From Minisyncoccota bacterium (GTDB lineage: Bacteria; Patescibacteriota; Minisyncoccia; Phycocordibacterales; UBA918), in contig JAIPIB010000003.1 in NCBI GenBank assembly GCA_021734905.1, positions 1,334-65,333 of the forward strand: DNA of 64,000 bases. Reading direction: 5' to 3'. The notes beneath the pieces are model-generated. The model was not told where the DNA came from. It saw nothing but the letters and a program-made list of their open reading frames with translations, and searched no databases. How positions within the stretch are numbered: position 1 is the first letter of the stretch; every line of letters starts with the position of its first letter. Positions 2,113 through 62,426 of the stretch are shown here, in pieces. The translations under genes and the position numbers were made by a program.

Positions 2113-4755
2113 TTACCGTCCGTAAAGTGATTTTTTAAGGTATTGCCCTGTAAATGATTTTGAATTTTCTGCAACCTCTTCAGGAGTTCCCTTTGCAACA
2201 AGTGTTCCACCTTTCTCTCCCCCCTCAGGTCCAATATCAATGACGTAATCAGCACATTTAATTAAATCAAGATTGTGTTCAATGACCATAACGGTGTTTC
2301 CCTTGTCGACAAGCTCTTGGAGAATCTCAATTAACTTTTTGACGTCCTCATAATGCAAACCAATTGTTGGTTCATCGAGTAGATAGAGCGTCTTTTGTGT
2401 GTGTGGTCTATAGAGCTCCGATGCAATCTTCACTCTCTGAGCCTCACCCCCAGAGAGTGTCGTAGCACTTTGCCCAAGTTCAAGATAACTAAGTCCGACA
2501 TCCAATAATGATTTCATCCTCTCATGGATTGCGGGTATGTCTAAAAAGAATGCGTCCGCTTCCTCAATGGTCATATGAAGCACATCATCAATGTTTTTAC
2601 CTTTGTAATAAACTTCGAGTGTTTCTTTTGTAAATCGCTTCCCATCACAGACATCACACGTTACGTAGACTGTTGGCAAAAAATGCATTTCTACAGCAAT
2701 TTCACCATTTCCTTGACACGCCTCACACCGTCCACCCTTGACATTAAATGAAAAACGACCTGGTTTCCATCCACGCGCCCGCGCTTCTCCTGATGCGGCA
2801 AAGAGGTCCCGCACGTGTGAAAATGCACCTGTATATGTTGCAGGATTCGATCGTGGAGTCCTTCCGATAGGAGACTGGTCGATAAGTATCGACCGACCCA
2901 AATATTCAGTTCCTGTTACACTTGTTGCATTATAGGTGCGTGCATTCCTATATTTTTTATCAAGACGAGAACGTAGATTTCTATGCAAAATTTCATACAT
3001 AAATGTAGATTTACCACTTCCTGAAACTCCAGTGATCGCCGTAAGTCGTCCGAGAGGAATATCTACGTTTAAATTATTAATATTGAACGCCTTCCCTCCC
3101 TTAATTTTTATTGATCCTTTTTCGCCACTTCTTCGCTCTTTAGGTATTTCTATAGCTTTGTCACCACGAAGGTAATCAAGTGTTATTGATTTTGAAATAT
3201 TTTTTTCTTCTGCCAGAAGTTTTGGTAGGTAATCCGCTACAACCACGTGTCCCCCATGAATCCCTGCACCTGGTCCGATATCTACAAGATAATCAGCAGC
3301 AAAAATAGTGTCCTCATCGTGTTCTACAATAATTATTGTATTTCCAAGATCACGAAGTTCAGTCAGTGTTTTTATGAGTCGATCATTATCTCTTTGGTGT
3401 AGTCCAATTGTAGGCTCATCAAGAACATACATAGCACCAACAAGTCCAGAACCAAGCTGTGATGCAAGTCGTATTCGTTGAGCCTCTCCTCCTGACAATG
3501 TGTTCGCTCGCCTACCCAAAGTCAGATATTCAATCCCAACGTTATTCATGAATTCAAGTCGCTCAATAATCTCTCGTAAAGCTGGCCATGCTATGTCCTG
3601 ATCTTTTTTCGAAAGCTTCAGTTCAGAAATAAATTGTGCCGCTTCACCAATCGTCATGTTTGTAAAATCGACAATATTCTTGCCAAGGTTTTTTCCTCCA
3701 TCTCCTCCAAGGTATACGCGAAGCGCCTCTTTTCTTAATCGCGCCCCGTTACATGCTGAGCAAACATCAATATTAAAGATCCCTGCCGTACCCAGCCCAT
3801 TACATTCTGGACATGCACCATAAGGTGAATTGAACGAAAAAAGACGTGGTTCAACTTCAGGAAATGAGGAACCGTCGATTGGACAAATAAATTTTGCTGA
3901 TAGCAGTCGCTCATCTCCATCTGGTGTTCGGACCTTGACAAGCCCTTTTGATTCACGAAGTGCTAATTCAACCGCCTCAGATAGACGTTCTTTAGCGTTT
4001 TTAGGAGAGTTGATAAATTCACTAACATAGATCTCATCTACAAGAACGTCAATATCATGACGTTTTGTTTTTGATAAAACAATTTTTTCCCGCAACTGTT
4101 TGATTTCACCATCAATTTTCACAACTTCGTATCCTTTTCCAAGAAGGTCATAAAGCATTTGATAATATTCCCCCTTCCTTCCAACAACGAGTGGTGAAAA
4201 AATCGCTACTCTTGCGGAGCTTACTTCGACACCTAAAATATTTTTTGTGTCATTTTTAATTTTCTTAATTTCTCTATCCTCGATTGATTTTTGGATAATA
4301 GATAAAATTTCATCTTGTGATAATTTTTGGATTGGGACATCTGTATCAATACAGTATGGCTGACCTATTCGTGCATACAAAATTCTAAGATAGTCATATA
4401 TTTCCGTTATTGTTGCAACCGTTGACCGAGGGTTCCTTGAAGCAGATTTTTGATCAATAGAAATTGCTGGGGAAAGTCCACTGATTTCATCAACATCTGG
4501 CTTTTGCATCTGCTTCAAAAACTGTCGTGCATATGATGACAGCGACTCGATGTATCGTCTCTGACCCTCCGCAAAGATTGTATCAAATGCGAGGGATGAT
4601 TTTCCACTTCCAGAAAGACCCGTAAATATAACCATTTTGTTCCGAGGTAACTCAACTGATATGTTTTTGAGATTATGCGTCCGCGCACCACGAATAATGA
4701 TTTTTCTATCACCAGGGTCCTCCCATTCTGTTTTTTTCTCTTTTTTGGTTGCCAT
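2113..4755 (-). CDS. uvrA: excinuclease ABC subunit A
   Basis: 880 aa; two ABC ATPase modules ([14 protein letters not shown]; [10 protein letters not shown]), Zn-finger Cys clusters, LSGGE signatures. Confidence 0.95.
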
Positions 4756-4831
4756 ACATTCACCCCTTACGATGGTGCGTAAGGTTTATAAAAACATTAT
4801 ACAGTGATAGACAGTGTTTGGAAACTACGCA

Positions 4832-6174: not shown

Positions 6175-8991
6175 TTAGAGACGAGCAAGAACAGACTCTT
6201 CCTCTCTAACATGCAAACCAAGGAGAAGGAGGACGAGACCAATGGCCGCTATCGCAATCGACGCTATAGCAAAGAGAGCGTTTGTTCTGAAAAATGACGG
6301 ATCTGCTTGAACGGTAATTTTTTCAGTTACTGCCGCATTGGTATACGCCTCAGCTGTCTTAACAAATGGAAGTGGGTTACTTCGCGCCACAACATATCCG
6401 GCGTTGTCCGTTATTCCTGCATACACCTCATGTGTACCATTCTCAAGTTCTTTATCAAGAATGTAACTCCATCCACCATCACTATCTGTTCGTACTGTCA
6501 CAACAATTGGAGTACTATAGATATAAAGCGTAACAAAACTATTTGGTAAAGCTCGCCCTGAAATAATTGCCCGTTTTGGAGTTTCGAGGCCTGTGAGATC
6601 AACGTTGTCTGATAACGCTGTTATCGACTCAACAACAAGAAGATCCTCACGAGTAATTCCTGAATCTTTCGGTGACTCGTAGACTACAAGCGCCTCACTG
6701 CTGCTGTCGTGTGGATTATAGCCCCGTGCGATTTCTGAACCATCCGTAAAACCATCCCCATCCGTGTCAGCAGAAAATGGATTCGTATTATATAGATTTA
6801 CTTCGTCGTAATCAGAAATCTCATCCTTATCTGAGTCCAGTATGACAGCATCTCCAATTCGTTCTTTAAGTATTGCTTCATTTTTTATTGTTACTTCTTC
6901 AAGTTGCGCAGTAACTTGAGAAATGTATGAATTAACATCATTAGCAACACTTTTTCGCTCGTCTTCTTGATTAAAATTTCTTAGTGCATCCTGTTGTATT
7001 TCCTTGATACTCTCCTTAACGCGCTGGCGCTCGTTTTCACTACCAGATCGTTCCGCTTTTGCAAGATCATTAAGCTTACTGTGAAGTGACGACCTGTAGT
7101 CAGTCAAAATTGTTTGGATTTCTGACTTTATCTCATCATCTGCTTCAACAGAATTTATAAATGAATTGACAGCTTGTACATACACTACTTTTGGTGGAGC
7201 TGACTGATCATTATTAGTGACTGAAATGATTTCTGATGCGACTTTAGCTTGTGATTCATCTTTAAATGAAATAAGGGAATCGTCAGCTTTTGTTAGAGTT
7301 TCGATTTTTAATTCCTGCTCAGGAGTAAACGTAGACATCAGCTCATTGTGTACTGTAACCTGACTTTTGCTACCTTCTATAAAGCCATACGGAGATTTAA
7401 CACGTGCGTAGACATCATAATCGCCGTTTGGTGACTCTTTTGTAATCCAAGTATATTTCCATTCTGATGAAGAGACTCTTCTTGCTAGGCCAAGAAATTG
7501 TGCCGTCAATGAACTTCTTGGTTTTGCAAAAATCTCTACTGAATCAACCCTAGGAGCAGTTACAATAATATCAACATAGCCTGAAAACGGACTTTTTTTA
7601 GAGAAATCAATTCCAACACTAGGTTTTAAAAAATCAGTTGAGCTAGAAACTTTTTGCACATACTTCTCCTCGGGCTTTACAATCTCTGTAAGGGTAACAA
7701 CAGGTGACAAAGCCTCAATTTCATTCTTGACAATTACTGTCTTAAGAAGACTCTGGCGAGACTCGTTATTAACAACAGCATGTGCAGTTATCTCAAAACG
7801 TCCGTTTGGAACCTTCTTTGTATTCCAAGTTAAGTGCCAATAATCAGTATCGGAACGAGTGGCAGAGCCTACAAAGTAAGGCGTTCGCGTCTTTTCTCCC
7901 CGAGCATATACTTTTATCTCAGATGCCTCATTAGCCAATATCTTCAAAAGGATACTATTAGAAAGATACCTATCGTTGGGCAAAATAAGGAGAACTTGGT
8001 CTTTATGTTCATTTATTTCAGGGACCATCAAAGGTTCATCATTTTCAACTTGTTTAGTGCCTCCATCGTCATAATTCTGCGTTGTTGTTGCAATTTTCTC
8101 TATTGAATCATCAGTGATTTTTACTAATTCAGAATTAATTTTGTCCTGATTCGTATTGTCCATAATACCATTCTCATCTTTAGGCTCCTCTCTAGGGGAA
8201 ATAATTTCAGGAAGCTTATTCGCCACTGAATATATTGCCGAATCAATCTGCTCATATGAACCATGTAAATTTTTTATAACAGTTCTGAGATTATATTCAC
8301 CATTATCATACTGTCGAGTATCCCAAAGTGATTTCCAATTATTATTATCAATCCGCACCGCAGAGCCAACAGGAATCAAACGGCCATCCTTTTTTCTTTC
8401 TGCAATAAGTTTTACCTCACTTGCGTTACCTACGGAAACAGTAACAGGGACGACATTTGCAAACGGAGTGCCTGTCCCTGGTGAAAGCCTTACAGCAGGT
8501 TGTGTCTCAGTATTCAAGATTCTTGAGGTATCAATGATACCAATAAAATTTGCCTGCTGTGCAGTCCGCGTATAATTCGCACCACTCATGCGACTTTCGG
8601 TTGTTACTTCGGGATCAACAATGTACTGAAGATTCAAAAGTGAAAAAAAGGTCCCTGCGAGTACAAAAAATACACCTGCTATTCTTGCTGCAAGAGCAAC
8701 TGTTTTTGTGTTAAGAGATGGGAATCTGTAAGGCGACAAACAAACAATTTGTAACTGTGCCTTTGTAATCAATTTTTCCTTACTCTTCTTAACAGAGTTA
8801 TCAGTAATTACAATTTTAGGATTCTGTGTACTTTTTAAAAGTTTTACATTAATTTTTTTCTTTGTCTTGACCTTAGCAACATCAATTTTAACCGAAGCAG
8901 TACTTTCTTTTTTTCGAGTTTTTTTCGCCCGCGTTGGCACAGTTTTCGTAATTGCACGTACTGCGGGGCCTTTCTTAGCTTTTACAACCAT
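6175..8991 (-). CDS. large membrane protein with basic N-terminal tail, extracytoplasmic region and thrombospondin-type-3-like Ca-binding repeat
   Basis: 938 aa; KK/RK-rich N-terminus then TM; DTDGDGFTDGSEIARGYNP motif; C-terminal TM (ALFAIASIAIAAIGLVLLLLGL). Confidence 0.5.
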   Translation of the reverse strand: MVVKAKKGPAVRAITKTVPTRAKKTRKKESTASVKIDVAKVKTKKKINVKLLKSTQNPKIVITDNSVKKSKEKLITKAQLQIVCLSPYRFPSLNTKTVALAARIAGVFFVLAGTFFSLLNLQYIVDPEVTTESRMSGANYTRTAQQANFIGIIDTSRILNTETQPAVRLSPGTGTPFANVVPVTVSVGNASEVKLIAERKKDGRLIPVGSAVRIDNNNWKSLWDTRQYDNGEYNLRTVIKNLHGSYEQIDSAIYSVANKLPEIISPREEPKDENGIMDNTNQDKINSELVKITDDSIEKIATTTQNYDDGGTKQVENDEPLMVPEINEHKDQVLLILPNDRYLSNSILLKILANEASEIKVYARGEKTRTPYFVGSATRSDTDYWHLTWNTKKVPNGRFEITAHAVVNNESRQSLLKTVIVKNEIEALSPVVTLTEIVKPEEKYVQKVSSSTDFLKPSVGIDFSKKSPFSGYVDIIVTAPRVDSVEIFAKPRSSLTAQFLGLARRVSSSEWKYTWITKESPNGDYDVYARVKSPYGFIEGSKSQVTVHNELMSTFTPEQELKIETLTKADDSLISFKDESQAKVASEIISVTNNDQSAPPKVVYVQAVNSFINSVEADDEIKSEIQTILTDYRSSLHSKLNDLAKAERSGSENERQRVKESIKEIQQDALRNFNQEDERKSVANDVNSYISQVTAQLEEVTIKNEAILKERIGDAVILDSDKDEISDYDEVNLYNTNPFSADTDGDGFTDGSEIARGYNPHDSSSEALVVYESPKDSGITREDLLVVESITALSDNVDLTGLETPKRAIISGRALPNSFVTLYIYSTPIVVTVRTDSDGGWSYILDKELENGTHEVYAGITDNAGYVVARSNPLPFVKTAEAYTNAAVTEKITVQADPSFFRTNALFAIASIAIAAIGLVLLLLGLHVREEESVLARL

Positions 8992-9045: not shown

Positions 9046-11070
9046 CTATTTTAGTGAGTGGCTTTCTAGTGCTTGAATCTCATCACGAAGAATGGCGGCG
9101 GTCTCAAAATCAAGAATTTCAACAGCTTTTTCCATCTGATCTCGTTTATCTTTAATTGTTCCTTTTGGATCCTTTTTATAGAGATCGAGGTCAACAGAAA
9201 GAAGTAGAGATATAGTTTTATCGTGCTCAGTTTTTAGATGTTCAGTTATATCTTTGATTTCCTTAACGATTGTTTGTGGCGTAATCCCATGTTTTACATT
9301 GTGAGCAAGTTGTATATCTCTTCTTCTCTGTGTCTCCTCTACTGCTCGTGTCAATGACTTTGTCATTTGATCAGCATACAGAATGACTCTACCATCAAGG
9401 TTCCTTGCAGCGCGTCCAATTGTTTGAATAAGCGCCGTTTCAGAACGAAGAAAACCTTCTTTATCAGCATCAAGAATTGCTACCAATTGCACCTCAGGGA
9501 GGTCCAGTCCTTCTCGTAACAGATTCACTCCAACCAAGCAATCAAAAACGCCTTTTCGAAATTCTGTAAGAATTTGAATCCTCTCCATAGTTTTAATGTC
9601 ACTATGAATGTATTTAGATTGAATTCCACGCTCAGTAAGAAATTCTGAAAGATCTTCTGCCATTTGCTTTGTGAGTGTTGTTACGAGAACACGTGCGTTA
9701 TTTGCAATTACCTTTACCGATTCCTCAATAAAGTCCTTAACTTGCCCTGGATACCCCCCTCTTTCAGTAATAGGTCGAATATCAATAATTGGATCCACGA
9801 GACCTGTTGGTCTAATTATTTGCTCTATAATTTGACCTTCATCTGTCTCAGCGTGTGTAAATTCATAGGTACCTGGTGTTGCTGATGTGTAAAGACGTTG
9901 CCCAACACGATCCTCAAACTCTGCAAAATTAAGTGGTCGATTATCAATTGCGCTTGGAAGCCTAAAACCATGTTCCACAAGTGTCAGTTTTCTCGATCTG
10001 TCACCGGCATACATACCGCCAATTTGTGGAATAGTGACGTGTGATTCGTCAATGACAGTGAAGAAATCCGGTTTACCGTCTTTTGTGTGCGGAAAGTATG
10101 AAAGCAAAGTGAAGGGCGCTTCACCTTCAACACGTCTATCAAAATGGCGTGAGTAATTTTCTATACCATTGCAATACCCGATCTCACGTATTAAAGCAAG
10201 ATCATGGTCGGTTCGCCTTTTTAAGCGTTGAGCTTCTAGAAGTTTTTCTTCCTTTTCAAATTTTTTCAACTGGACGTCAAGCTCTTTTTTAATATCAACC
10301 ATTGCGTGCTTGCGCTCGGCTTCAGGTGTTACAAAGTGTTTTGCTGGAAAAAGAAAAAAAACTTCACTTTCTTCAATTATTGTTCTTGAAATTGCATCAA
10401 TTTTTGTAATTTCTGTAACTGTGTCTTCGTTAAAGCTTAACCGATATATTACACGCTCATTTGTCGGCATGATCTCGACGGTGTTACCTACCGCTCTAAA
10501 ATGACCTGGAAGTAAGTCTGCATTAGTTCGTTCAAAATACATTCCAACAAGAAGCCTGAGCATCTCAGACCGACTGCTTTTATAACCTTTTTCAATTTTT
10601 TTATGTACTTTTTCGTATTCAATCGGCGAACCGAGCCCATAGATACACGATACTGAGGCTACAATGATTACGTCTTTTCTTGTGAGTAGTGCTTGTGTTG
10701 AGGCGTGGCGAAGGCGATCAATCTCTTCATTGATCATTGCCTCCTTTTCTATATATGTATCCGAGATAGGCATGTATGCCTCTGGTTGATAGTAATCGTA
10801 ATATGAAACAAAATAATGTACTGCATTATTAGGAAAAAAATCCTTATACTCTTGAGCAAGTTGTGCAGCAAGCGTTTTGTTGTGAGCAATAACGAGTGTT
10901 GGCTTTTGTAACTGCGCAATAACATTGGCAGCAGTAAAGGTCTTTCCTGAGCCTGTTACTCCAAACAATGTCTGATGCTTCATTCCTGCTTTACATCCAT
11001 CAACAATTTTTTTAATTGCTTTTGGTTGATCACCAGCAGGTGTTTTTTCTGTTGAAAGCTCGAAATTCAT
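9046..11070 (-). CDS. uvrB: excinuclease ABC subunit B
   Basis: 674 aa; Walker A GVTGSGKTFT, helicase motifs, C-terminal UVR coiled coil. Confidence 0.95.
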   Translation of the reverse strand: MNFELSTEKTPAGDQPKAIKKIVDGCKAGMKHQTLFGVTGSGKTFTAANVIAQLQKPTLVIAHNKTLAAQLAQEYKDFFPNNAVHYFVSYYDYYQPEAYMPISDTYIEKEAMINEEIDRLRHASTQALLTRKDVIIVASVSCIYGLGSPIEYEKVHKKIEKGYKSSRSEMLRLLVGMYFERTNADLLPGHFRAVGNTVEIMPTNERVIYRLSFNEDTVTEITKIDAISRTIIEESEVFFLFPAKHFVTPEAERKHAMVDIKKELDVQLKKFEKEEKLLEAQRLKRRTDHDLALIREIGYCNGIENYSRHFDRRVEGEAPFTLLSYFPHTKDGKPDFFTVIDESHVTIPQIGGMYAGDRSRKLTLVEHGFRLPSAIDNRPLNFAEFEDRVGQRLYTSATPGTYEFTHAETDEGQIIEQIIRPTGLVDPIIDIRPITERGGYPGQVKDFIEESVKVIANNARVLVTTLTKQMAEDLSEFLTERGIQSKYIHSDIKTMERIQILTEFRKGVFDCLVGVNLLREGLDLPEVQLVAILDADKEGFLRSETALIQTIGRAARNLDGRVILYADQMTKSLTRAVEETQRRRDIQLAHNVKHGITPQTIVKEIKDITEHLKTEHDKTISLLLSVDLDLYKKDPKGTIKDKRDQMEKAVEILDFETAAILRDEIQALESHSLK

Positions 11071-16167: not shown

Positions 16168-16737
16168 CTACCTCAAGATTAATTCAACGTATTCTTGCAG
16201 TTCATCGTTTGATAGAACTCCCCTTTTGTGTCCAACAAGTATCCCATCTCTGTTATAGAACAGTGTCTCTGGCATTGCATATCCTTCGACTGCCTTATAG
16301 AAATGGTCGCTTTGATCAGCTATAACAACAAGCCCTTCAGGAGTACCAATGAAAGCAAGATACGCTTTCATTGTACTGAGACTCTCCATTCTATTTATTG
16401 CTAAAATCTCGACAGACTCACCTTTTTTCTTCTTCACTTCTGACAAAAGGAGTAACTCAGACTGCGAAAATGGAATCCAGCTTGCCCACGAATTAATGAT
16501 AAGTGGCTTTCCCTTGAAACTAACTAGTTCAATTATTTCACCGTTAATATCTGTATATGGAGAAGCAACGTCGGGATCAATCATCTTAAGGTCATCTGAC
16601 AGACCTGAAAAAATACCTCGTGAAGTCGTATATGAATAGGTTAGATAGCCCGTAATTATAAGAATTCCAACAAGTAAGGAGAGTGTCTTCCAATTATCTT
16701 TAAGTTTCTCTTGCATATCAGGAAACAAGTGCCTCAA
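16168..16737 (-). CDS. thioredoxin-fold TlpA/ResA-like protein lacking the CXXC active site
   Basis: N-terminal TM; GKPLIINSWASWIPFSQSEL occupies the position of the FWASWCxPC motif but both Cys are replaced (I and S). Confidence 0.55.
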   Translation of the reverse strand: MRHLFPDMQEKLKDNWKTLSLLVGILIITGYLTYSYTTSRGIFSGLSDDLKMIDPDVASPYTDINGEIIELVSFKGKPLIINSWASWIPFSQSELLLLSEVKKKKGESVEILAINRMESLSTMKAYLAFIGTPEGLVVIADQSDHFYKAVEGYAMPETLFYNRDGILVGHKRGVLSNDELQEYVELILR

Positions 16738-31506: not shown

Positions 31507-31577
31507 TGCCCGATCGTCTAATGGTAGGACACATGGTTTTGGTCCATGGAATCGAGGTTCGAGCCCTTGTCGGGCAG
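31507..31577 (+). tRNA. tRNA-Gln (anticodon TTG)
   Basis: cloverleaf folded by hand: acceptor TGCCCGA/TCGGGCA with U1-A72 (typical of bacterial tRNA-Gln), anticodon stem CATGG/CCATG, loop TTTTGGT, T-arm CGAGG-TTCGAGC-CCTTG; no encoded CCA. Confidence 0.85.
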
Positions 31578-31585
31578 CAGTTAGT

Positions 31586-31651
31586 AAAAATCCGCAACAA
31601 GCGGATTTTTGCGTTACTGCTGCAACGACAGAACAGTCTGGGAGACTGTTC
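31586..31651 (+). terminator. two consecutive perfect stem-loops after tRNA-Gln
   Basis: AAAAATCCGC-AACAA-GCGGATTTTT (31586-31610) and GAACAGTCT-GGG-AGACTGTTC (31631-31651). Confidence 0.6.
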
Positions 31652-31840
31652 GAAAGGGCTCGAAGACCTTGCCAGATATTTTATGACGTAAGGAAATAAA
31701 ATATCGACAAGATATACTACCTATGTAATGGGAGAGACCTTTTGTCAGGCAGCAATGCATAGAAATTACGAAATTTCTGTTTCATACTCACAACTCTGTA
31801 CGATGTAGGCTTCTTCATCTTATTAATTTGATATACTTTT

Positions 31841-56298: not shown

Positions 56299-57507
56299 CT
56301 ATAGTGAAAAATTCTTTATAGAATACATATCTGAAGAGTCATCTTCTTCTGATTGTGCCTGGATGGTTTGAGGGTTACTTTCTTCAATTCTTTGATTTTG
56401 AACTGCTTGCTGAATAGGTTCCGACTCTGTCAATTGATATTCTGTTTCAATCAAATCATCTTCTATTTCAGTACCTTCTGGGACCTCAAGTGTGTCATGT
56501 CGAGTATACACATCCTCATCAACTGGAGCCTCTGCAAGTAATTCTTCTTCAGGATTATTAAGTACTGGTATTTCATCATTGGGTTTAATTTCCGGAGTCG
56601 GGACTTCATCTGCACTCACAAGTGGCGTTGCTGCTGTGACATGCGCAAGAATTTTTCTATCAGTATTTCCATTAGCAGATTCAGCTTTATGCACCATTTC
56701 AAGTAACTTTCGAAGATCCTCTGGTGCAAAGTAGTCAATAGTAAGTTTACCGCCAAAATCAGTTTTAAGAATTTGTACTCGTGTTCCGAATGTTTCTGTA
56801 AATTGTCTTTCAATTTCGATAAGTTCTGGATCAGAATTTTGCCAGTCCTTCTTCCGAACTTTATCAGATGCTATTTTTCGAGTAATACGCTCCACCTCAC
56901 GCACAGAAAGTTTTTTGAGTAGAATCTCTCGAAAAACAACATCTTGTTCTACTTGTCTATCGTTAAGCATAAGTAGCGTTCTTGCGTGTCCGTCAGAGAT
57001 ATCGTTCACTCGTAATGCGTTTAGAATCACTTCCGGAAGTCCGAGAAGTCGGATTGAGTTAGATACATATTCACGACTACGTCCAACCTTTTGTGCAACT
57101 TGTGCATGTGAGAGGCCGAATTTTTCAGAAAGTTGCTTAAACGCGAGAGCGCGGTCGACCGCATTAAGATCCTCTCGTTGTAAATTCTCGATAATTGCAA
57201 GCTCAAGCTTCATGAGCTGCGACTCCTCACCAGAACGGATAATAACCGGCACTTGAGCAAGGCCAGCTAGTTTTGAAGCTCGAAGTCTCCGTTCTCCAGC
57301 AATAAGTTCATACTCAGTAGAAAAAGCTCCGTTCTCGGCCATTATCTCCCGGCGAGTTACAACGAGTGGTTGCAAGATCCCGTACATTCGAATCGATTCA
57401 GAGAGCTCCTGAAGTTTATTTGGATCAAATTCACGACGTGGTTGGAATGGATTTGGAACAACTTTTTCCACCTCAATCCAAAAAATTGAATTACTTTCGT
57501 ATGCCAT
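56299..57507 (-). CDS. ParB/Spo0J-like protein with long acidic C-terminal tail (orphan; no parA adjacent)
   Basis: ParB box FQPRREF...GILQPLVV...YELIAGERRLRASKLAG, HTH LSHAQVAQKVGRSREYVSNSIRLL. Start set to the internal Met at 57507 because the longer ORF overlaps the tRNA-like element. Confidence 0.7.
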   Translation of the reverse strand: MAYESNSIFWIEVEKVVPNPFQPRREFDPNKLQELSESIRMYGILQPLVVTRREIMAENGAFSTEYELIAGERRLRASKLAGLAQVPVIIRSGEESQLMKLELAIIENLQREDLNAVDRALAFKQLSEKFGLSHAQVAQKVGRSREYVSNSIRLLGLPEVILNALRVNDISDGHARTLLMLNDRQVEQDVVFREILLKKLSVREVERITRKIASDKVRKKDWQNSDPELIEIERQFTETFGTRVQILKTDFGGKLTIDYFAPEDLRKLLEMVHKAESANGNTDRKILAHVTAATPLVSADEVPTPEIKPNDEIPVLNNPEEELLAEAPVDEDVYTRHDTLEVPEGTEIEDDLIETEYQLTESEPIQQAVQNQRIEESNPQTIQAQSEEDDSSDMYSIKNFSL

Positions 57508-57583
57508 AGCGACATTGTAGCATATGATATATTCCCAGCCTGTGTATAATTTGATACACTTCGGATGACGTTCTTCCCAGTGT

Positions 57584-57713
57584 GCCGGGATGGCGGAATT
57601 GGTATACCGTGAATCAGTGCCCCGCACTGATTCACCAACTCAAAATCGTGTATCGAAAGGTTTGAGGGCTGAAACAATATGGGGTATTGTTTCAGGAGGT
57701 TGTCGAGATTTTA
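57584..57713 (+). other. degenerate partial copy of tRNA-Leu (5' two-thirds) interrupted by two perfect 27-nt hairpins, ending in conserved AGGAGGTTGTCGAGATTT
   Basis: GCCGGGATGGCGGAATTGGTATAC matches tRNA-Leu positions 1-24 (21/24); AACTCAAAATCGTGT matches the anticodon loop region; AAGGTTTGAGGG matches variable/T-stem; hairpins at 57609-57635 and 57669-57695; no 3' acceptor complement found. Confidence 0.7.
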
Positions 57714-57730
57714 TTATTCGTGTTCATAGT

Positions 57731-57812
57731 GCTGGAGTGGCGGAATTGGTATACGCGCGCGACTCAAAATCGCGTTCCGCAAGGATTGAGGGTTCAAGTC
57801 CCTCCTCCAGCA
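57731..57812 (+). tRNA. tRNA-Leu (anticodon CAA), type II
   Basis: acceptor GCTGGAG/CTCCAGC, D-arm GCGGAATTGGTATACGC, anticodon stem CGCGA/TCGCG with loop CTCAAAA, 13-nt variable arm, T-arm GAGGG-TTCAAGT-CCCTC, discriminator A. Confidence 0.85.
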
Positions 57813-57963
57813 CTGTGAACGAGAATTAAAAAAAATTATACAACCTGAACAGAATTCGTAGAATTCAAGTCCCTCTCCCGGCACAGCGCTTCTTAACTAA
57901 GTATCTATCCCTGAATACAAAAAACCCGTCGTAAAGTACGGGTTTTTCGTACTGCGACGGATT

Positions 57964-58569
57964 CTACCTTCTGCAAAGCATGTTATATGTTTGAGCTGAC
58001 TTTCTCTCCCTAAGCCATGTACCAACGGACTCATTGCCGACAGCAATTTCATTAGTGGTCGCCCAATCCAAACCAGTTTTGCCATGACGAAAAAGACAAT
58101 GGCCAAAACGTGCAACATCAAACTTGCCGTCACAAGGCTCAACAACTTTCTCAATTGCAAAATATGGCTGAAAGCTATTTCGGCGATATCGCAGCTTGAG
58201 GGTAATTTCCGAAAGAACAGGGACAAGGACCTTATTTGGAGTGACGGTATAGATGAGCTCTGTTCCTCCTTTTTCCTCGGGAACTTCTTCAATCTGACCG
58301 TCAGCAATACGGGCAACAGAAACCCAATGCACGGTCTCTGCTACCATCTCTGACCCATGAGCAAAGCTATGAAAGCCACTTGGGACTTTAGAGATGAATT
58401 TGTGATACGCAAGAATAAGTTCCCCAGAAAATTTACGCACAGCGGGTGCAAAAACAGTTCGAACCAATCTTCTCTGAAGTCCGTCGCGCAATCCTGCGAT
58501 AGGCTTTTCCGCAGAGTCCCAAATTTGTTTTAAGACGAGTACTTCTGGCGTACTTGTTGTGATAATCAC
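57964..58569 (-). CDS. hypothetical protein
   Basis: 201-aa ORF divergent from miaA; not confidently assigned. Confidence 0.4.
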   Translation of the reverse strand: MIITTSTPEVLVLKQIWDSAEKPIAGLRDGLQRRLVRTVFAPAVRKFSGELILAYHKFISKVPSGFHSFAHGSEMVAETVHWVSVARIADGQIEEVPEEKGGTELIYTVTPNKVLVPVLSEITLKLRYRRNSFQPYFAIEKVVEPCDGKFDVARFGHCLFRHGKTGLDWATTNEIAVGNESVGTWLRERKSAQTYNMLCRR

Positions 58570-58705
58570 GGATCACCTCCATTTGTTTAATTTGAGAAAT
58601 AGCAAGACCTCAATCCAAGTCAAATCCTACGCTATCCGTGTACAAATGCAAATTCATCCTCACACACGCGTTACAAGCACACCTAAATATGATATACCTG
58701 CACTC

Positions 58706-59596
58706 ATGAGCAAGTCAAAAGTATTAGTTATAGTAGGACCTACAGCATCGGGGAAGACTTCCCTTTCTATATCTCTCGCCAAAAAATTTGACGGTGAGAT
58801 TACTTCTGCTGACTCACGACAAGTTTATAAGGGGCTTGATATAGGAACTGGCAAGGTTACTAAGGGTGAAATGGAGGGTGTTCCACATCATCTTCTTGAT
58901 GTAGTATGCCCTGAAGAAACCTATACCGTCGCGGACTTCGTCCGCGACGGTCGAAATGCCATTACTGACATACACTCTCGTGGGAGACTTCCCATAATTG
59001 TCGGTGGAACATTTTTTTATGTTGATGCTCTTTTGGGTAAAATTGTTACACCAGAAGTTCCACCAAATCAAAAACTGCGAGCTGAGCTAGAGGATTGCTC
59101 GAATGAAGATCTTTTTTTAAGATTACAAGAAAAAGATCCTAAGCGGTCAAAAAACATTGACCAGCACAACGGCCGGAGACTCATCCGTGCACTTGAGATC
59201 GTGGATTCGCTAGGCTCTGTCCCAAAGATCCATGTTGAAGAACTTTATGATGTGCTCACGCTTGGTATCGCGATTAATCGCGATACCCTCAAAGAAAATA
59301 TCCACACTCGTCTTGCTGACCGATTAAAAACAGGAATGCTTGAGGAAGTTACTGAGCTACATAAGGCAGGACTTTCATACGAAAGACTTTCAGAGCTTGG
59401 AATTGAATATCAATACCTCAGTAAATTTATACAAGGAAATATTTCAGAAGATGAAATGCGACAACAAATTGAAACAAAAAGTTGGCAATACGCAAAACGT
59501 CAAATGATGTGGCTAAAGCGAGACAAGACGATACAATGGGTGAAATTGGATGAATTGGAAAAAATTGATACGTTAGTAAATAAATTTTTAAGATAG
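58706..59596 (+). CDS. miaA: tRNA dimethylallyltransferase
   Basis: P-loop VLVIVGPTASGKTSLSISLA then DSRQVYKGLDIGT. The ORF-track start at 58559 is an upstream in-frame extension; Met at 58706 is the likely start. Confidence 0.85.
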   Translation: MSKSKVLVIVGPTASGKTSLSISLAKKFDGEITSADSRQVYKGLDIGTGKVTKGEMEGVPHHLLDVVCPEETYTVADFVRDGRNAITDIHSRGRLPIIVGGTFFYVDALLGKIVTPEVPPNQKLRAELEDCSNEDLFLRLQEKDPKRSKNIDQHNGRRLIRALEIVDSLGSVPKIHVEELYDVLTLGIAINRDTLKENIHTRLADRLKTGMLEEVTELHKAGLSYERLSELGIEYQYLSKFIQGNISEDEMRQQIETKSWQYAKRQMMWLKRDKTIQWVKLDELEKIDTLVNKFLR

Positions 59597-59710
59597 ATGT
59601 TTTTTTAATACACTCTACGTCACGAGTTGCTAAACAAATTGCTTCGCAAACCTGTAATTTGTTAAGCACTCTCGACCCCGACTCGCTTGCCTACCGGCAT
59701 CGCTTCGTCT

Positions 59711-59772
59711 CCCGCAGAGGTAAAAGAAAAAGAGCATGCAAATGCATGCTCTTTTTCTTTTACCTCTGCGGG
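59711..59772. terminator. 62-nt perfect palindrome (29-bp arms) abutting and overlapping the 3' end of tRNA-Trp; bidirectional terminator candidate between miaA and tRNA-Trp
   Basis: CCCGCAGAGGTAAAAGAAAAAGAGCATGC-AAAT-GCATGCTCTTTTTCTTTTACCTCTGCGGG; last 4 nt overlap the tRNA acceptor 3' end. Confidence 0.7.
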
Positions 59773-59839
59773 CCCACGTGGAATCGAACCACGGCCACTG
59801 GTTTTGGAGACCAGCATTCTACCTCTAAACTATAGGCCC
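59769..59839 (-). tRNA. tRNA-Trp (anticodon CCA)
   Basis: minus-strand cloverleaf: acceptor GGGCCTA/TGGGCCC, anticodon stem CTGGT/ACCAG with loop CTCCAAA, T-arm CGTGG-TTCGATT-CCACG, discriminator G. Confidence 0.8.
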
Positions 59840-59889
59840 AGACGTCAACCATAGTACGGGAAACGGATACTATGGTCAACGGAAGACTC

Positions 59890-60744
59890 CTAGCTCCTTA
59901 CCAGAACATCCCAATGATCTCCCTCTTGCGCATAAATAGTTCCATCAGGCGCTGTATACATAGTGGCTCCGTCACTCCTAACTCCAGAATTTTTATAGTT
60001 TGTGATTATATATGTATTAAGCTTTGGGTTCATGCGAGCATCATATTTATACCCATTTCCATGACTTGTTGCTCCTGCGGCATGACCACCTGTGGACTCT
60101 GTTCCTCCGGTAATTGTTACATCACAATTACAATCTCTTTTAAGGTCAATTGCATCTTTAATAGTGGCGTCTCTTATCCCTTGAAGTGACGTACATCCTG
60201 ACGTTCCACTGCAATCAGCTTGTACTTTTCCTCCTGAACTAGTGACCGAAACATTTGCTGCTGTAAGACGATTGACAGCGTCATCTTGTGACAATCCACC
60301 TCCCTTTCCGACTGAAGCAACAGAGGGGGCTTGTGAAGACTGAGATGTTGCACTTGGAATTCCTGGTACACATTGAATTTCATTCCAAGGACCAAGGAGA
60401 GCTCCTTCGTTAAGGAGAAGTTTGAGTGCAGTATCAACGATAAGGTATCCAGAGAGAAGAATAACAAAACCAACCACTGAATTCGTCATCGTCGTACGCG
60501 CCTGAGATATTGCTTCAGTTGAACCACCAGACATAACCATTTTCATCCCTCCGAACGCAAACATGAGTGCGATAATGGTCGCCATAATTCCAATAAACCA
60601 TGAAATGAGTTTTTGTCCGAGCTCAACAAAATCACACGCTTGACAATCTGGACCATCACAAGGAACAATCCCTTCTCCAGCAAACGTCAACGCAGGAACT
60701 GATATAAGTAGTGCAAGAAAGACTACGAGTAAGGTGCGTTTCAT
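59890..60744 (-). CDS. fusion of Patescibacteria-type T4SS pilin-like (TrbC/VirB2-like) domain with C-terminal LAS-type (M15-like) zinc peptidase-like domain
   Basis: signal peptide, IVPCDGPDCQACDFVELGQKLISWFIGIMATIIALMFAFGGMKMVMSGG + second TM (pilin-like pattern); C-terminus TSHGNGYKYD (SxHxxGxAxD-like) and EGDHWD (ExxH-like). Start taken at MKRTLLVV (GGTGAG RBS); ORF-track 5' extension to 60990 rejected. Confidence 0.55.
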   Translation of the reverse strand: MKRTLLVVFLALLISVPALTFAGEGIVPCDGPDCQACDFVELGQKLISWFIGIMATIIALMFAFGGMKMVMSGGSTEAISQARTTMTNSVVGFVILLSGYLIVDTALKLLLNEGALLGPWNEIQCVPGIPSATSQSSQAPSVASVGKGGGLSQDDAVNRLTAANVSVTSSGGKVQADCSGTSGCTSLQGIRDATIKDAIDLKRDCNCDVTITGGTESTGGHAAGATSHGNGYKYDARMNPKLNTYIITNYKNSGVRSDGATMYTAPDGTIYAQEGDHWDVLVRS

Positions 60745-60836
60745 ACTCACCATCTTATCATGTTCCTTTGTAACACTTTTACTAAACAGTGAATTGTGGT
60801 ACTTTATAACCTGTCTCTCGGGACATTCAGATACAT

Positions 60837-60893
60837 GCGTCGGTGGCAGAGTGAGAAAGTCTGGTAGACTTTCGCAAGAGGTTGTCGATATTT
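60837..60893 (+). other. 17-nt exact copy of the tRNA-Tyr 5' end followed by a hairpin and conserved AAGAGGTTGTCGATATTT, ~140 nt upstream of tRNA-Tyr
   Basis: GCGTCGGTGGCAGAGTG identical to tRNA-Tyr positions 1-17; hairpin GAAAGTCT-GGT-AGACTTTC (60855-60873); motif shared with the tRNA-Leu upstream element. Confidence 0.7.
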
Positions 60894-60993
60894 CGTTGAG
60901 AAATATCATACAATCTGAACAGCGCCTGTAAGGCGGTAACGAAGTCAAATGCCTGTTATAATCAAAGCGTCTTTGATGACAGGTCAACATAAT

Positions 60994-61076
60994 GCGTCGG
61001 TGGCAGAGTGGTCAATTGCAGGAGACTGTAAATCTCCCGGATTTATCCTACGCAGGTTCAAATCCTGCCCGGCGCA
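60994..61076 (+). tRNA. tRNA-Tyr (anticodon GTA), type II
   Basis: acceptor GCGTCGG/CCGGCGC, anticodon stem GGAGA/TCTCC with loop CTGTAAA, long variable arm, T-arm GCAGG-TTCAAAT-CCTGC, discriminator A. Confidence 0.85.
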
Positions 61077-61085
61077 CATTTTAAG

Positions 61086-61106
61086 GCACCCCATTTGGGT
61101 GCTTTT
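61086..61106 (+). terminator. stem-loop plus T-run immediately after tRNA-Tyr
   Basis: GCACCC-CATTT-GGGTGC-TTTT. Confidence 0.5.
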
Positions 61107-61226
61107 AAAATGTGTGACAGGAGGAAGACACTCAATGTGTCTTCCGTCAGGATTTGAAAAGGTTGCCAGCGATTTTGAAGAATGAAAAATCGTGGCAACC
61201 TGTACCGGTCATGTAATGACCAAAAT

Positions 61227-61242
61227 TCCTGCCCGGCGCACA
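61227..61242 (+). repeat. 16-nt direct repeat of the tRNA-Tyr 3' end (att-like)
   Basis: TCCTGCCCGGCGCACA occurs at 61063-61078 (tRNA 3' end) and again at 61227-61242; the intervening ~150 nt contains three hairpins. Confidence 0.8.
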
Positions 61243-61246
61243 AAAC

Positions 61247-61276
61247 TTGACAATACGCCATTTTCAGTGCAATATA
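61247..61276 (+). promoter_or_regulatory. sigma70-like promoter for the 77-aa ORF
   Basis: TTGACA-N17-CAATAT(A) immediately after the att-like repeat; strong GAGGAG RBS before the ATG at 61314. Confidence 0.5.
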
Positions 61277-61313
61277 TTTTTAGTTAGCCCTTATCACAAC
61301 CTGAGGAGATATA

Positions 61314-61547
61314 ATGAATACTGCCACTGAGGAACTGTTCCAGATGGACACTTTGCAAGCAAAGCTCATGCAAGAATCCATGCGGGATCTTCAAATCACA
61401 AGTGGTGATGTTGGAAAGGTATTTGTCTTGAGAAACGGAGAGCAGGCCGGTGAGATAATTACTCGCGAATCTTTCGCCACCATCCCCGTCTTCGAAATAC
61501 ATGCGTGGGTTGTAGTCAGCGAATTTGACATTAATACGTTGGACTAA
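61314..61547 (+). CDS. small hypothetical protein (77 aa)
   Basis: good promoter, GAGGAG RBS, and strong downstream terminator. Confidence 0.5.
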   Translation: MNTATEELFQMDTLQAKLMQESMRDLQITSGDVGKVFVLRNGEQAGEIITRESFATIPVFEIHAWVVVSEFDINTLD

Positions 61548-61859: not shown

Positions 61860-62426
61860 TCACAGATACTTTAGTCGAAGTCCTTCATTTTTTAAGTCAC
61901 ACAATGAATCGTATATGTCATGCATTACAACCCGCAACATCCGAAAATGTGTAAAGTTGTGTGCCACACACCCGTCTGCAATGAAGTTGTGCTCACCCTG
62001 TGTATACAGGTTAAACACTGGTTCAGTTGTTCCGGTTGGCGCAATACTCTTGATACAAGAATGTGCCGCTTTTGACGAACTGATGCGCATGATGCTGTCA
62101 CCTGGACTGAGCTTTTTAATCGACTGATATCCTTTATCAGTCATAAAGCTATGGCCCAAAGTACAGATCATTCCAACATCATCTGATTCAAAAGTTACAT
62201 TGACCAGTGGTGCTGGTTCGTGAACCAACTTGCGAGTGATTCGTCTTGGGACCAAAATGCCCTTTTTGTATGACAGAACCATTTCCCCTTCGGACAAATC
62301 TCCGATAGGAATTTTGCCACTCGGTGTTTCTATAAGTGTAGACTTGGGGAAACAATCCCAAGAATATTCAATACCTCTGGTACCTGCGCCTGGCAAATCA
62401 TTATCTACGTCAGAGTGCTTACCCAT
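61860..62426 (-). CDS. free-standing Hint/mini-intein-like (bacterial intein-like) domain protein
   Basis: block A CFPKSTLIETPSGKIPIGDL after a 24-aa leader; block B TLGHSFMT; blocks F/G EPVFNLYTQGEHNFIADGCVAHN; 31-aa tail after the HN beginning with Phe, not Cys/Ser/Thr. Confidence 0.7.
   Translation of the reverse strand: MGKHSDVDNDLPGAGTRGIEYSWDCFPKSTLIETPSGKIPIGDLSEGEMVLSYKKGILVPRRITRKLVHEPAPLVNVTFESDDVGMICTLGHSFMTDKGYQSIKKLSPGDSIMRISSSKAAHSCIKSIAPTGTTEPVFNLYTQGEHNFIADGCVAHNFTHFRMLRVVMHDIYDSLCDLKNEGLRLKYL

Follow-up and report, generated by a model that had tools for sequence, protein, structure and literature searches.

Introduction

Miniature non-coding insertion elements and tRNA-targeted integration with restoration of the gene are kinds of system already known, and the unit described here would be a variant of both. 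It is a non-coding unit of ~85 nt, composed of three hairpins (H1, H2 and H3), and was found at tRNA genes in a 64-kb stretch of DNA from a Minisyncoccota bacterium (GenBank assembly GCA_021734905.1, contig JAIPIB010000003.1, positions 1,334 to 65,333), referred to below as the window. The unit is a conserved family of one Patescibacteria clade and is uncatalogued in Rfam. With moderate confidence, we read it as a non-autonomous insertion element with tRNA T- and D-loops as its targets; duplicated or imported pieces of tRNA would keep the genes functional.

Several properties of the unit are shared with integrative elements that attach at tRNA genes (prophages, integrative and conjugative elements, and archaeal integrated elements bordered by tRNA fragments): the insert restores the gene with its own copy of the segment from the T-loop to the 3' end, the native 3' end is displaced as a direct repeat, and events stack. 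Unlike these elements, the inserts described here are ~150 nt long, carry no integrase, and occupy 19 isoacceptors and non-tRNA loci from one core family; 5' stumps, D-loop insertions, whole-gene cargo and a junction without a complete T-arm core are also found. Miniature inverted-repeat transposable elements, such as the Rickettsia palindromic elements and the Correia elements, are likewise small, structured and non-autonomous and can overlap gene ends, as the unit does at rplJ. In contrast to them, the unit has no terminal inverted repeats (its ends, H1 and H3, are unrelated to each other and its inverted repeat, H2, is internal), its targets are RNA genes, and function is saved by a second copy and not by tolerating the insert.

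The REP/BIME repeats, the REPINs (RAYT) and the IS200/IS605 palindromes resemble the unit as short non-coding hairpin repeats that are intergenic or operon-internal and form mosaic clusters, with no terminal inverted repeats, no evident regular target duplication and a conserved asymmetric (extrahelical) hairpin feature. Unlike the REP/RAYT systems, the unit shows a strong bias for tRNA T- and D-loops, parts of the target are duplicated, its copies are divergent and its copy number is apparently low. More generally, it shares with the single-strand hairpin systems (REP/RAYT, IS200/IS605 and integron attC) internal inverted repeats, an asymmetric loop, conservation of H1 and H3 in structure only, and junctions adjacent to hairpins. 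The unit could nevertheless be assigned to none of the three; in the case of attC (RYYYAAC/GTTRRRY), inspection placed the arms in the wrong order.

Two further systems are linked to tRNA genes. The phage T4 SegB cassettes (PMC2330249) are, similarly, selfish cassettes associated with tRNA genes and accompanied by co-conversion of flanking tRNA sequence, and GIY-YIG open reading frames adjoin stumps in L002 and L133, whereas no endonuclease gene was found at the element copies studied here. Group I introns of Patescibacteria, from the same phylum, also interrupt tRNA genes and confuse their annotation. They are >200 nt long, self-splicing and situated in the anticodon loop (35/36), whereas the unit is 85 nt long, lies in the D- or T-loop, gives no Intron_gpI match and is found in interrupted copies that are accompanied by intact ones. 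A group I intron was rejected for the window itself, where RF00028 had no match at the gathering threshold, nor any at E<=10 over 57400-61400; the same search did detect an intron in the 23S rRNA gene of the element-bearing locus L127 (7576-7867, Rfam 87.5 bits; L-numbers are labels of comparison loci). The junctions are in the D-loop and T-loop and not in the anticodon loop, and in the outer copies other parts are missing or altered by mutation. No account of nested or split tRNA genes accompanied by an element of this kind came up in a literature search; PMC13011429 and PMC11270868 cover introns and rRNA insertions only.

An intact tRNA-Tyr gene between two stumps

The tRNA genes of the window, located by ARAGORN and Rfam, are four (Gln, Leu(CAA), Trp and Tyr). 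Features are on the plus strand unless stated otherwise. The intact, inner tRNA-Tyr(GTA) lies at 60994-61077 (ARAGORN; Rfam 58.4 bits). The initial annotation had reported that the first 17 nt of this gene recur upstream of it, and the self-copy is real; it is in fact 19 nt long, as two leader bases belong to it. Two exact occurrences of ATGCGTCGGTGGCAGAGTG (2 leader bases and tRNA-Tyr positions 1-17) are present in the window, at 60835-60853 and 60992-61010, so that an exact copy of the start stands 157 nt upstream of the gene, and 100 shuffles gave 0 matches for this duplication even at 2 mismatches. The 3' end of the gene is also repeated, as 61060-61078 recurs directly at 61224-61242 (AATTCCTGCCCGGCGCACA, 19 nt), 164 nt downstream of the gene. 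The latter copy is part of a stump at 61222-61242 (direct repeat, 95%), which holds a T-loop remnant, the 3' strands of the T-stem and acceptor, and ACA. With a 5' copy upstream and a 3' copy downstream, the intact tRNA-Tyr therefore sits between the stumps of an older, outer copy, whose 5' stump is 60835-60853.

The hairpin GAAAGTCT-GGT-AGACTTTC, the sequence AGGTTGTCGATATTT that follows it and the near-identical AGGTTGTCGAGATTT at tRNA-Leu, all pointed out in the initial annotation, are present, and the hairpin and the motif AGGTTGTCGAKATTT are parts of one three-hairpin unit. In this copy (copy A), H1 is GTGAGAAAGTCT-GGT-AGACTTTCGCAA at 60851-60877, with its first 3 bases shared with the 5' stump. 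H2 follows at 60880-60915 (GGTTGT-C-GATATTTC / loop / GAAATATC-AT-ACAATC; 78.6 bits), with AGGTTGTCGATATTT (60879-60893) as its 5' arm, and the junction TGAAC-AG together with H3 (CGCC-TGTAA-GGCG) occupies 60916-60936; the H3 in L001 is identical. Folding of 60848-60940 gave the three hairpins at -31.2 kcal/mol (z = -3.7). Rfam 15 covariance models, run over the whole window at the gathering threshold and over 57400-61400 at E<=10, matched only the tRNAs, the sub-threshold matches being unrelated.

Upstream of the outer tRNA-Tyr start, a promoter-like TGGTACTTTATAAC (60797-60810) is conserved, as ATGGTACTTTATAG, at the corresponding place in L167 and, judging from its sequence, is probably the original tRNA-Tyr promoter. 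Between copy A and the intact gene, GTCAAATGCCTG (60944-60955) is a degenerate candidate for the T-loop/T-stem remnant of the outer gene, a weak assignment made by comparison with the inner GTTCAAATCCTG, and TGTTATAAT (60954-60962) is a putative extended -10-like box 32 nt 5' of the intact tRNA-Tyr. On the 3' side, a long palindromic terminator-like hairpin (61068-61121, inverted repeat) takes in the tRNA-Tyr 3' end and its complement. It is followed by an H1-like hairpin, GGAAGACAC-TCAA-TGTGTCTTCC (61123-61145), within an inverted acceptor/T-arm copy, a layout also found in L158 and L084, and by an exact antisense copy of the tRNA-Tyr T-loop/T-stem, CAGGATTTGAA (61148-61158, inverted repeat). 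A second element, copy D, then occupies 61161-61221 up to the 3' stump, with a beta-type H2 (GGTTGCCAGCGATTTT...AAAATCGTGGCAACC), TGTAC and the H3 GGTCA-TGTAA-TGACC; it scores 59.1 bits with a model that contains the sequence itself.

The unit at the other tRNA genes of the window

A covariance model of H2 and H3 placed four copies of the unit in the 64 kb, at Tyr, Leu and Gln only, i.e. at 3 of the 4 tRNA genes. A search of the window for the shared motif gave 2 exact matches and 2 with 2 mismatches, against 0.41 expected; the 2-mismatch match at 16404 is not an element and has no model match. At tRNA-Leu, AGGTTGTCGAGATTT lies at 57697-57711, adjoining the gene, and is the counterpart of the tRNA-Tyr AGGTTGTCGATATTT. 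The two loci have a second motif in common, ATACAAYCTGAACAG, with which the first pairs as its reverse complement. At tRNA-Tyr the two stand side by side as the arms of a hairpin, and at tRNA-Leu a whole intact tRNA lies between them.

The intact, inner tRNA-Leu(CAA) (57731-57813; acceptor GCTGGAG) thus lies in the loop of H2, and its leader and trailer are complementary, over ~17-29 nt. Around it is an outer tRNA-Leu(CAA), recognised from direct and inverted repeats and orthologous to the intact gene of L167. Its upstream part (57584-57668; acceptor GCCGGGA) runs from position 1 to the 5' strand of the T-stem and spans the anticodon arm, with CAA retained, and the variable arm; its downstream part, from the T-loop to the 3' end (TTCAAGTCCCTCTCCCGGCACA, 57864-57885), lies beyond the intact gene and pairs with the outer 5' strand GCCGGGA. 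The promoter-like box CTGTGTATAAT of the outer gene (57540-57550) is conserved before the clean tRNA-Leu genes of L167 and L170. The element here, copy C, is divided by its cargo, with H1 (57669-57695) and the H2 5' arm GGTTGTCGAGATTTT at 57669-57712 (inverted repeats, motif search) and the H2 3' arm ATACAACC, TGAAC-AG and H3 (GAATTC-GTA-GAATTC) at 57838-57866 (split model match 57785-57866). The acceptor strands of the outer gene, GCCGGGA/TCCCGGC, pair with each other but are not those of the inner gene, GCTGGAG/CTCCAGC, so that the outer tRNA-Leu was functional at one time and represents another allele. An extra hairpin within the outer tRNA-Leu (57609-57635) is also present in L082 (4164-4190), with a compensatory change between the two genomes (GTGAATCAGTGC/GCACTGATTCAC vs GTGAATCAGTCT/AGACTGATTCAC).

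The tRNA-Gln and tRNA-Trp genes had both been described as free of this design, which is correct for tRNA-Trp only. The region downstream of the tRNA-Gln gene (31507-31578) carries, at 31631-31754, an H1-like hairpin, an antisense T-loop (31654-31664) and a diverged, beta-type element (31661-31733; 42.2 bits, the sequence itself being in the model), behind which a tRNA-Gln 3' fragment is found (31734-31754). At tRNA-Trp (59768-59839, minus strand) there is no element; the only feature is a long palindromic terminator, of which the last six tRNA bases form part. The terminator-like hairpins of these tRNA genes are long palindromes (59600-59790, minus strand; 61068-61121; 31574-31623), whose stems reach into the last 6-17 tRNA bases, so that the complement of the acceptor 3' strand comes after the terminator.

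A conserved family and its targets

JGI metagenomes were scanned for the exact pattern GGTTGTCGAKATTT-N(5-35)-ATACAAYCTGAAC, in which 26 H2 bases are fixed, and 84 stretches were recovered; the counts given below use 75 unique copies for proximity to tRNA genes and 69 copies for borders and H3. Two of the matches, L082 and L104, are on one 1.03-Mb contig. A scan of viral contigs with the pattern gave 0 matches. Among 80 MiaA loci from other species (872 kb) the unit is present in L001 only, and the family is therefore restricted to one clade.

The central hairpin H2, with AGGTTGTCGAKATTT as its 5' arm and ATACAAYCTGAAC as its 3' arm, is conserved in the sequence of its stem (GGTTGT-C-GAKATTTT / AAAATATC-AT-ACAACC) and keeps an asymmetric internal loop; its length ranges from 36 to 56 across copies, and variants with a covarying distal stem were found. 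H1 is a hairpin of different sequence in nearly every copy, often with a conserved A.G mismatch and, in type I copies, with the base consensus YTGARAA...TTYRCAR. H3 has a variable 4-bp stem in which 4/4 pairs are changed on both sides and 97% of cells are paired, and its loop is TGTAA in 57/69 copies. The variation in H1, H3 and the distal part of H2 is independent of the search pattern. Directly 5' of H3, TGAAC is complementary to the universal GTTCR of T-loops, as read from the sequence.

At least 31 of the 75 unique copies lie <=300 nt from an intact tRNA, many of the contigs being short, and these represent 19 isoacceptors; in 14 the unit follows the tRNA and in 7 it precedes it, both on the tRNA's own strand, and in 10 it is on the other strand. 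Direct fusion of the element border to a T-loop or T-loop complement is seen in ~20/69 copies, compared with a background of 0.7%. The insertion targets are T-loops around TTC, and the junctions in the window are in the D-loop (Tyr) and the T-loop (Leu). The element borders are the exact breakpoints of the tRNA copies. Clean insertions (L167 Tyr 15|18 and the window's Leu 53|54) show no target duplication, and elsewhere there are long direct repeats of 19-88 nt, that of 88 nt being in L090.

A recurrent arrangement, termed type II, was found at thirteen loci. An intact tRNA is followed by a terminator-like hairpin and the complement of the acceptor 3' strand, often split by an H1-like hairpin; then come the T-stem/T-loop complement, H2, H3 and a sense copy from the T-loop to the 3' end that is often identical to the gene's own. 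The antisense segment tracks each tRNA's own T-loop sequence, the 3' arm of H3 merges with T54-C56, and the right junction is without the 5' strand of the T-stem. L085 is a simple insertion into a second tRNA copy, and in L118 and L139 the unit is in the opposite orientation to the tRNA. Positions outside tRNA genes are also used: in 12 loci the unit is between rplJ and rplL, sense-oriented, with the 5' arm of H1 encoding the last codons and stop of rplJ, and in rRNA operons it is in the 23S-5S spacer (sense) or behind 5S with a duplicated 5S 3' end.

The units form tandem arrays and clusters of related cores, and mixed arrays also occur. In other Patescibacteria, units of the same layout with unrelated or diverged cores stand behind tRNA-Trp and tRNA-Leu genes. 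A further conserved unit, CTGTCCACTCAT..GG.TTTA...CCTCAATGAGTCTTGCGA.AG (L001 3486-3558; L167 9359-9429, minus strand), is inserted in the T-arm of an outer tRNA-Leu (L001) and tRNA-Tyr (L167); it constitutes a fourth core family, which gave only weak matches with model R1. In L001, at 10260-10520, a run of N in the public record breaks a tandem array of tRNA-Leu(CAG) 3'-end units, and such tandem tRNA 3'-end arrays probably break short-read assemblies.

Empty and filled sites in relatives

L167 and L170 (MiaA 66-68%) have a clean tRNA-Leu preceded by the same CTGTGTATAAT box and leader as the window's outer copy, and are thus orthologous empty sites. Filled tRNA-Leu sites are found in the window, L169, L082, L145 and L001, each arranged differently. 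L001, the closest species-representative genome (MiaA 65%), has a syntenic tRNA-Leu locus with the same unit and an identical H3, and there the unit lies behind the intact inner gene, within a shredded outer tRNA-Leu. Upstream of miaA, L145 (minus strand, 38-500) has one tRNA-Leu(CAA) copy inside another, three in all, and the allele GCCGGGA is intact in L145 and broken in the window. Copy 1 of these three holds two simple GC-rich hairpins, CCTGCCTGCCGTCAGGCAGG and CCTGTCTGCCGACAGGCAGG, in its D-loop and anticodon stem, and a hairpin of this kind is also present in L133 (4551-4570).

The tRNA-Tyr of L167 (MiaA 68%) is built like that of the window: an exact self-copy of 24 nt comes first, H1-H2-H3 (82 bits) stands behind it at the corresponding D-loop position, and outer positions 18-42 come next. 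The tRNA-Tyr D-arm differs between the window and L167, yet in each genome the stump matches its own gene; hence, either copying (gene conversion or renewed duplication) is ongoing or the identity is selected. Downstream of the L167 gene are three successive units, each displacing another 3' end. The upstream self-copy is kept in the only near-identical genome, a metagenome-assembled genome at NCBI (99.9%), which carries the same tRNA-Tyr copy.

Discussion

The results indicate that the partial tRNA copies and hairpins reflect a systematic mechanism and not chance. This part of the initial annotation is strongly supported by the presence of the same unit in split tRNA copies of many isotypes. 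Among the candidates it had named, a hairpin mini-element or a tRNA-targeting mobile element is the best fit to the T- and D-loop positions and the orthologous empty tRNA-Leu site. What is observed comprises the anatomy of the unit, the family, the target bias, the empty and filled orthologous sites and the cargo; the steps proposed next are conditional on the insertion reading. An ancestral tRNA-Tyr beside its original promoter would have been split in its D-loop by an ~85-nt element, leaving the 17-19-nt self-copy as the stump of the split gene at the left junction of the insertion. The working tRNA-Tyr would be a complete copy 60 nt further on, with a second, diverged element in the T-loop region on its 3' side and then the old 3' stump. 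The preferred landing sites would be the two most conserved loops of tRNA genes, the T-loop and D-loop, as well as other highly expressed loci. Insertion into a single-copy essential tRNA gene would be lethal, and therefore an arrangement can persist only if it retains or supplies a working copy. The forms seen are three: the 3' part duplicated together with a terminator of its own (type II), the 5' part duplicated, and a whole tRNA in the loop of H2 (tRNA-Leu); repeated rounds would give rise to nested and serial gene copies. We infer that movement occurs at the DNA level, through folded single-stranded hairpins and an enzyme acting in trans, that stump and gene are held exactly identical by gene conversion or recurrent duplication, and that the hairpins are retained because folding is required for mobility or is self-correcting.

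Several findings weigh against an insertion element, and some of them speak for the main alternative, in which stable-RNA and ribosomal-protein transcripts contain the unit as a structured RNA module that acts in cis (for example as a signal for processing, stabilisation or insulation to which a conserved protein binds), the tRNA segments being selected pairing arms, such as alternative hairpins by which an antisense segment is held off the tRNA, and not insertion scars. No transposase, integrase or nuclease gene linked to the element was found among the neighbouring open reading frames (ORFs) of the 84 loci, where the only recurrent neighbours are L10/L12 and unrelated genes. Terminal inverted repeats are absent, a short target duplication of regular length was not seen, and the 26-base search pattern accounts in part for the constancy of H2 among the 84 loci. 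Copies within one genome (the window; L095; L082/L104) differ in H1, H2 loop and H3 and so give no sign of recent bursts, and no empty/filled polymorphism was seen in one close genome, a comparison that is uninformative at 99.9% identity. Orthologous copies are kept across ~68% MiaA divergence with compensatory changes, which looks like functional selection. The plus strand folds better in 55 copies and the minus strand in 13, a bias that fits an RNA role equally well. An RNA module is further favoured by the excess of G.T over A.C pairs (8 vs 2), the conserved A.G of H1, the covariation of H1 and H3 next to the constant sequence and asymmetric internal loop of H2, the divergence of copies within a genome, the long persistence of orthologous ones, and the sense orientation at rplJ-rplL and in the 23S-5S spacer, and would suit both the antisense T-loop segments that follow their own tRNA and the match of stump and gene in two lineages. 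However, the unit stands in either orientation to the tRNA, type II units are behind a terminator-like hairpin, clean orthologous genes function without the unit, and whole disrupted copies of another allele and nested triple copies are left unexplained. On balance we consider an RNA module a possible but rather improbable explanation. The two readings are compatible, in that a function may be the reason why an old mobile element was retained.

The displaced 3' ends invite comparison with attL/attR-type scars of integrase-mediated elements (prophages, integrative and conjugative elements, satellites) at tRNA genes, shrunk to ~150 nt, with hairpins that were formerly arm or accessory-protein sites. 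tRNA 3'-end direct repeats flanking a gene-restoring insert with its own terminator are the classical signature of tRNA integration, and the successive displaced 3' ends of L167 agree with it. Such an origin is nevertheless unlikely, as the inserts measure 140-190 nt, no integrase remnant is present in >80 loci, viral contigs gave no matches, and one core is shared by 19 isoacceptors, 5S and rplJ-rplL; the right junction also does not have the T-stem 5' strand expected of an attR core, and 5' stumps and D-loop insertions are at odds with 3'-end attachment. Still less probable is that the fragments derive mainly from free-standing GIY-YIG homing endonuclease cassettes, or from foreign tRNA alleles that were taken up and recombined, with the hairpin unit as a passive neighbour. 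This would fit L002, where a small ORF (6800-7018) lies between a 5' stump with a hairpin in its D-loop and an intact tRNA-Tyr, and L133, where one (4658-4831) lies immediately upstream of tRNA-Leu (both ~75-80 aa, Pfam PF01541, E = 6e-12), and the inner and outer tRNA-Leu do differ; but the window loci and most of the element loci lack such a gene, and the element borders match the tRNA breakpoints exactly. We regard these ORFs as a separate agent. A modular tRNA promoter or leader, the remaining candidate of the initial annotation, would consist of TTGTCG as -35 and TATCAT as -10, or of CTTACA-16-TATGAT on the opposite strand. Both hexamer pairs score 9/12, their spacing in copy A is 16 nt, and some tRNAs lie just downstream on either strand (L137, L109), so that copy A alone may have some promoter activity. 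Across copies, however, the spacing of TTGTCG...TATCAT varies from 11 to 31 nt instead of a fixed 16-18, TTGTCG is within a hairpin arm, units stand in either orientation, 14/31 tRNA-linked copies are downstream of the tRNA on the same strand, and the L001 unit is inside the old gene and downstream of the working one. Conserved promoter-like boxes are found elsewhere (57540-57550 and 60797-60810) and the motif is absent upstream of other genes in the window, and we regard a promoter as highly improbable. We think equally poorly of the prospects of a guide-type RNA scaffold, akin to omega RNA or an IS110 bridge RNA, in which flanking tRNA segments would direct a nuclease or recombinase encoded elsewhere. 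The likeness lies in a conserved scaffold between variable segments antisense and sense to the neighbouring T-arm, in the merging of H3 with its target and in the complementarity of TGAAC to GTTCR, and is a resemblance only; no TnpB, IscB or IS110 ORF recurs within 2.5 kb of the element, Rfam gave no match, and type I copies are without target-matching arms.

An extended form of the insertion reading, which we put forward tentatively, is that the unit is a mobile cassette that compensates for its own insertion: it would home to the T- and D-loops, universally conserved in tRNA genes, and bring along the rescuing piece of tRNA (3' part, 5' part or whole gene), its hairpins and target-complementary arms serving as a recognition device for an enzyme in trans and the whole driving tRNA-allele turnover and horizontal exchange in ultra-small bacteria. 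If the unit is an insertion element, the tRNA genes of reduced genomes are sites of recurrent invasion and replacement and not static single-copy housekeeping loci, and layered fossils, with up to three nested tRNA-Leu copies, affect tRNA annotation, gene-content estimates and the inference of transfer in Patescibacteria. It would also place outside Rfam an ~85-nt structured element with clear covariation and a marked T-loop preference, and make testable how a non-coding unit recognises a structured target and yet spares its host. Should an enzyme partner be found, it would amount to a recombination system specific for hairpins or loops, whose recognition module is compact and portable.

Additional observations

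Some other identities were considered for the unit and rejected. Self-cleaving ribozymes, tmRNA, RNase P and T-box had no model match, and a by-eye comparison with the hammerhead fails at G8 of the core. The dif, parS, DnaA-box and uptake sequences bear no resemblance to the unit or have the wrong copy number. Fold-back priming at H2 as the source of the inverted tRNA arms was discarded, there being no inverted H3 on the left side.

A RAYT-like ORF occurs in 8 loci. In L165 (2690-3349) this RAYT/IS200-like ORF of Y1 type (YHIYNRG ... LMPNHFHLL, assigned by motif; also in L096, L114, L131, L163, L164, L100 and L073) is flanked by CCTAGGAGAGTCCTAGGG palindromes and not by H1-H3, and these palindromes are a second, unrelated hairpin repeat system in the same clade.

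In the neighbourhood of the tRNA-Tyr locus, the gene between tRNA-Trp and tRNA-Tyr (59890-60744, minus strand) encodes a secreted protein with the type IV secretion pilin domain PF18895, and this pilin/tRNA-Tyr neighbourhood is conserved in L167-L169. Just downstream of the locus, a 188-aa ORF (61860-62426, minus strand) has matches to Hint/intein-splicing domains, as a bacterial intein-like protein, and is kept in the 99.9% sister genome.

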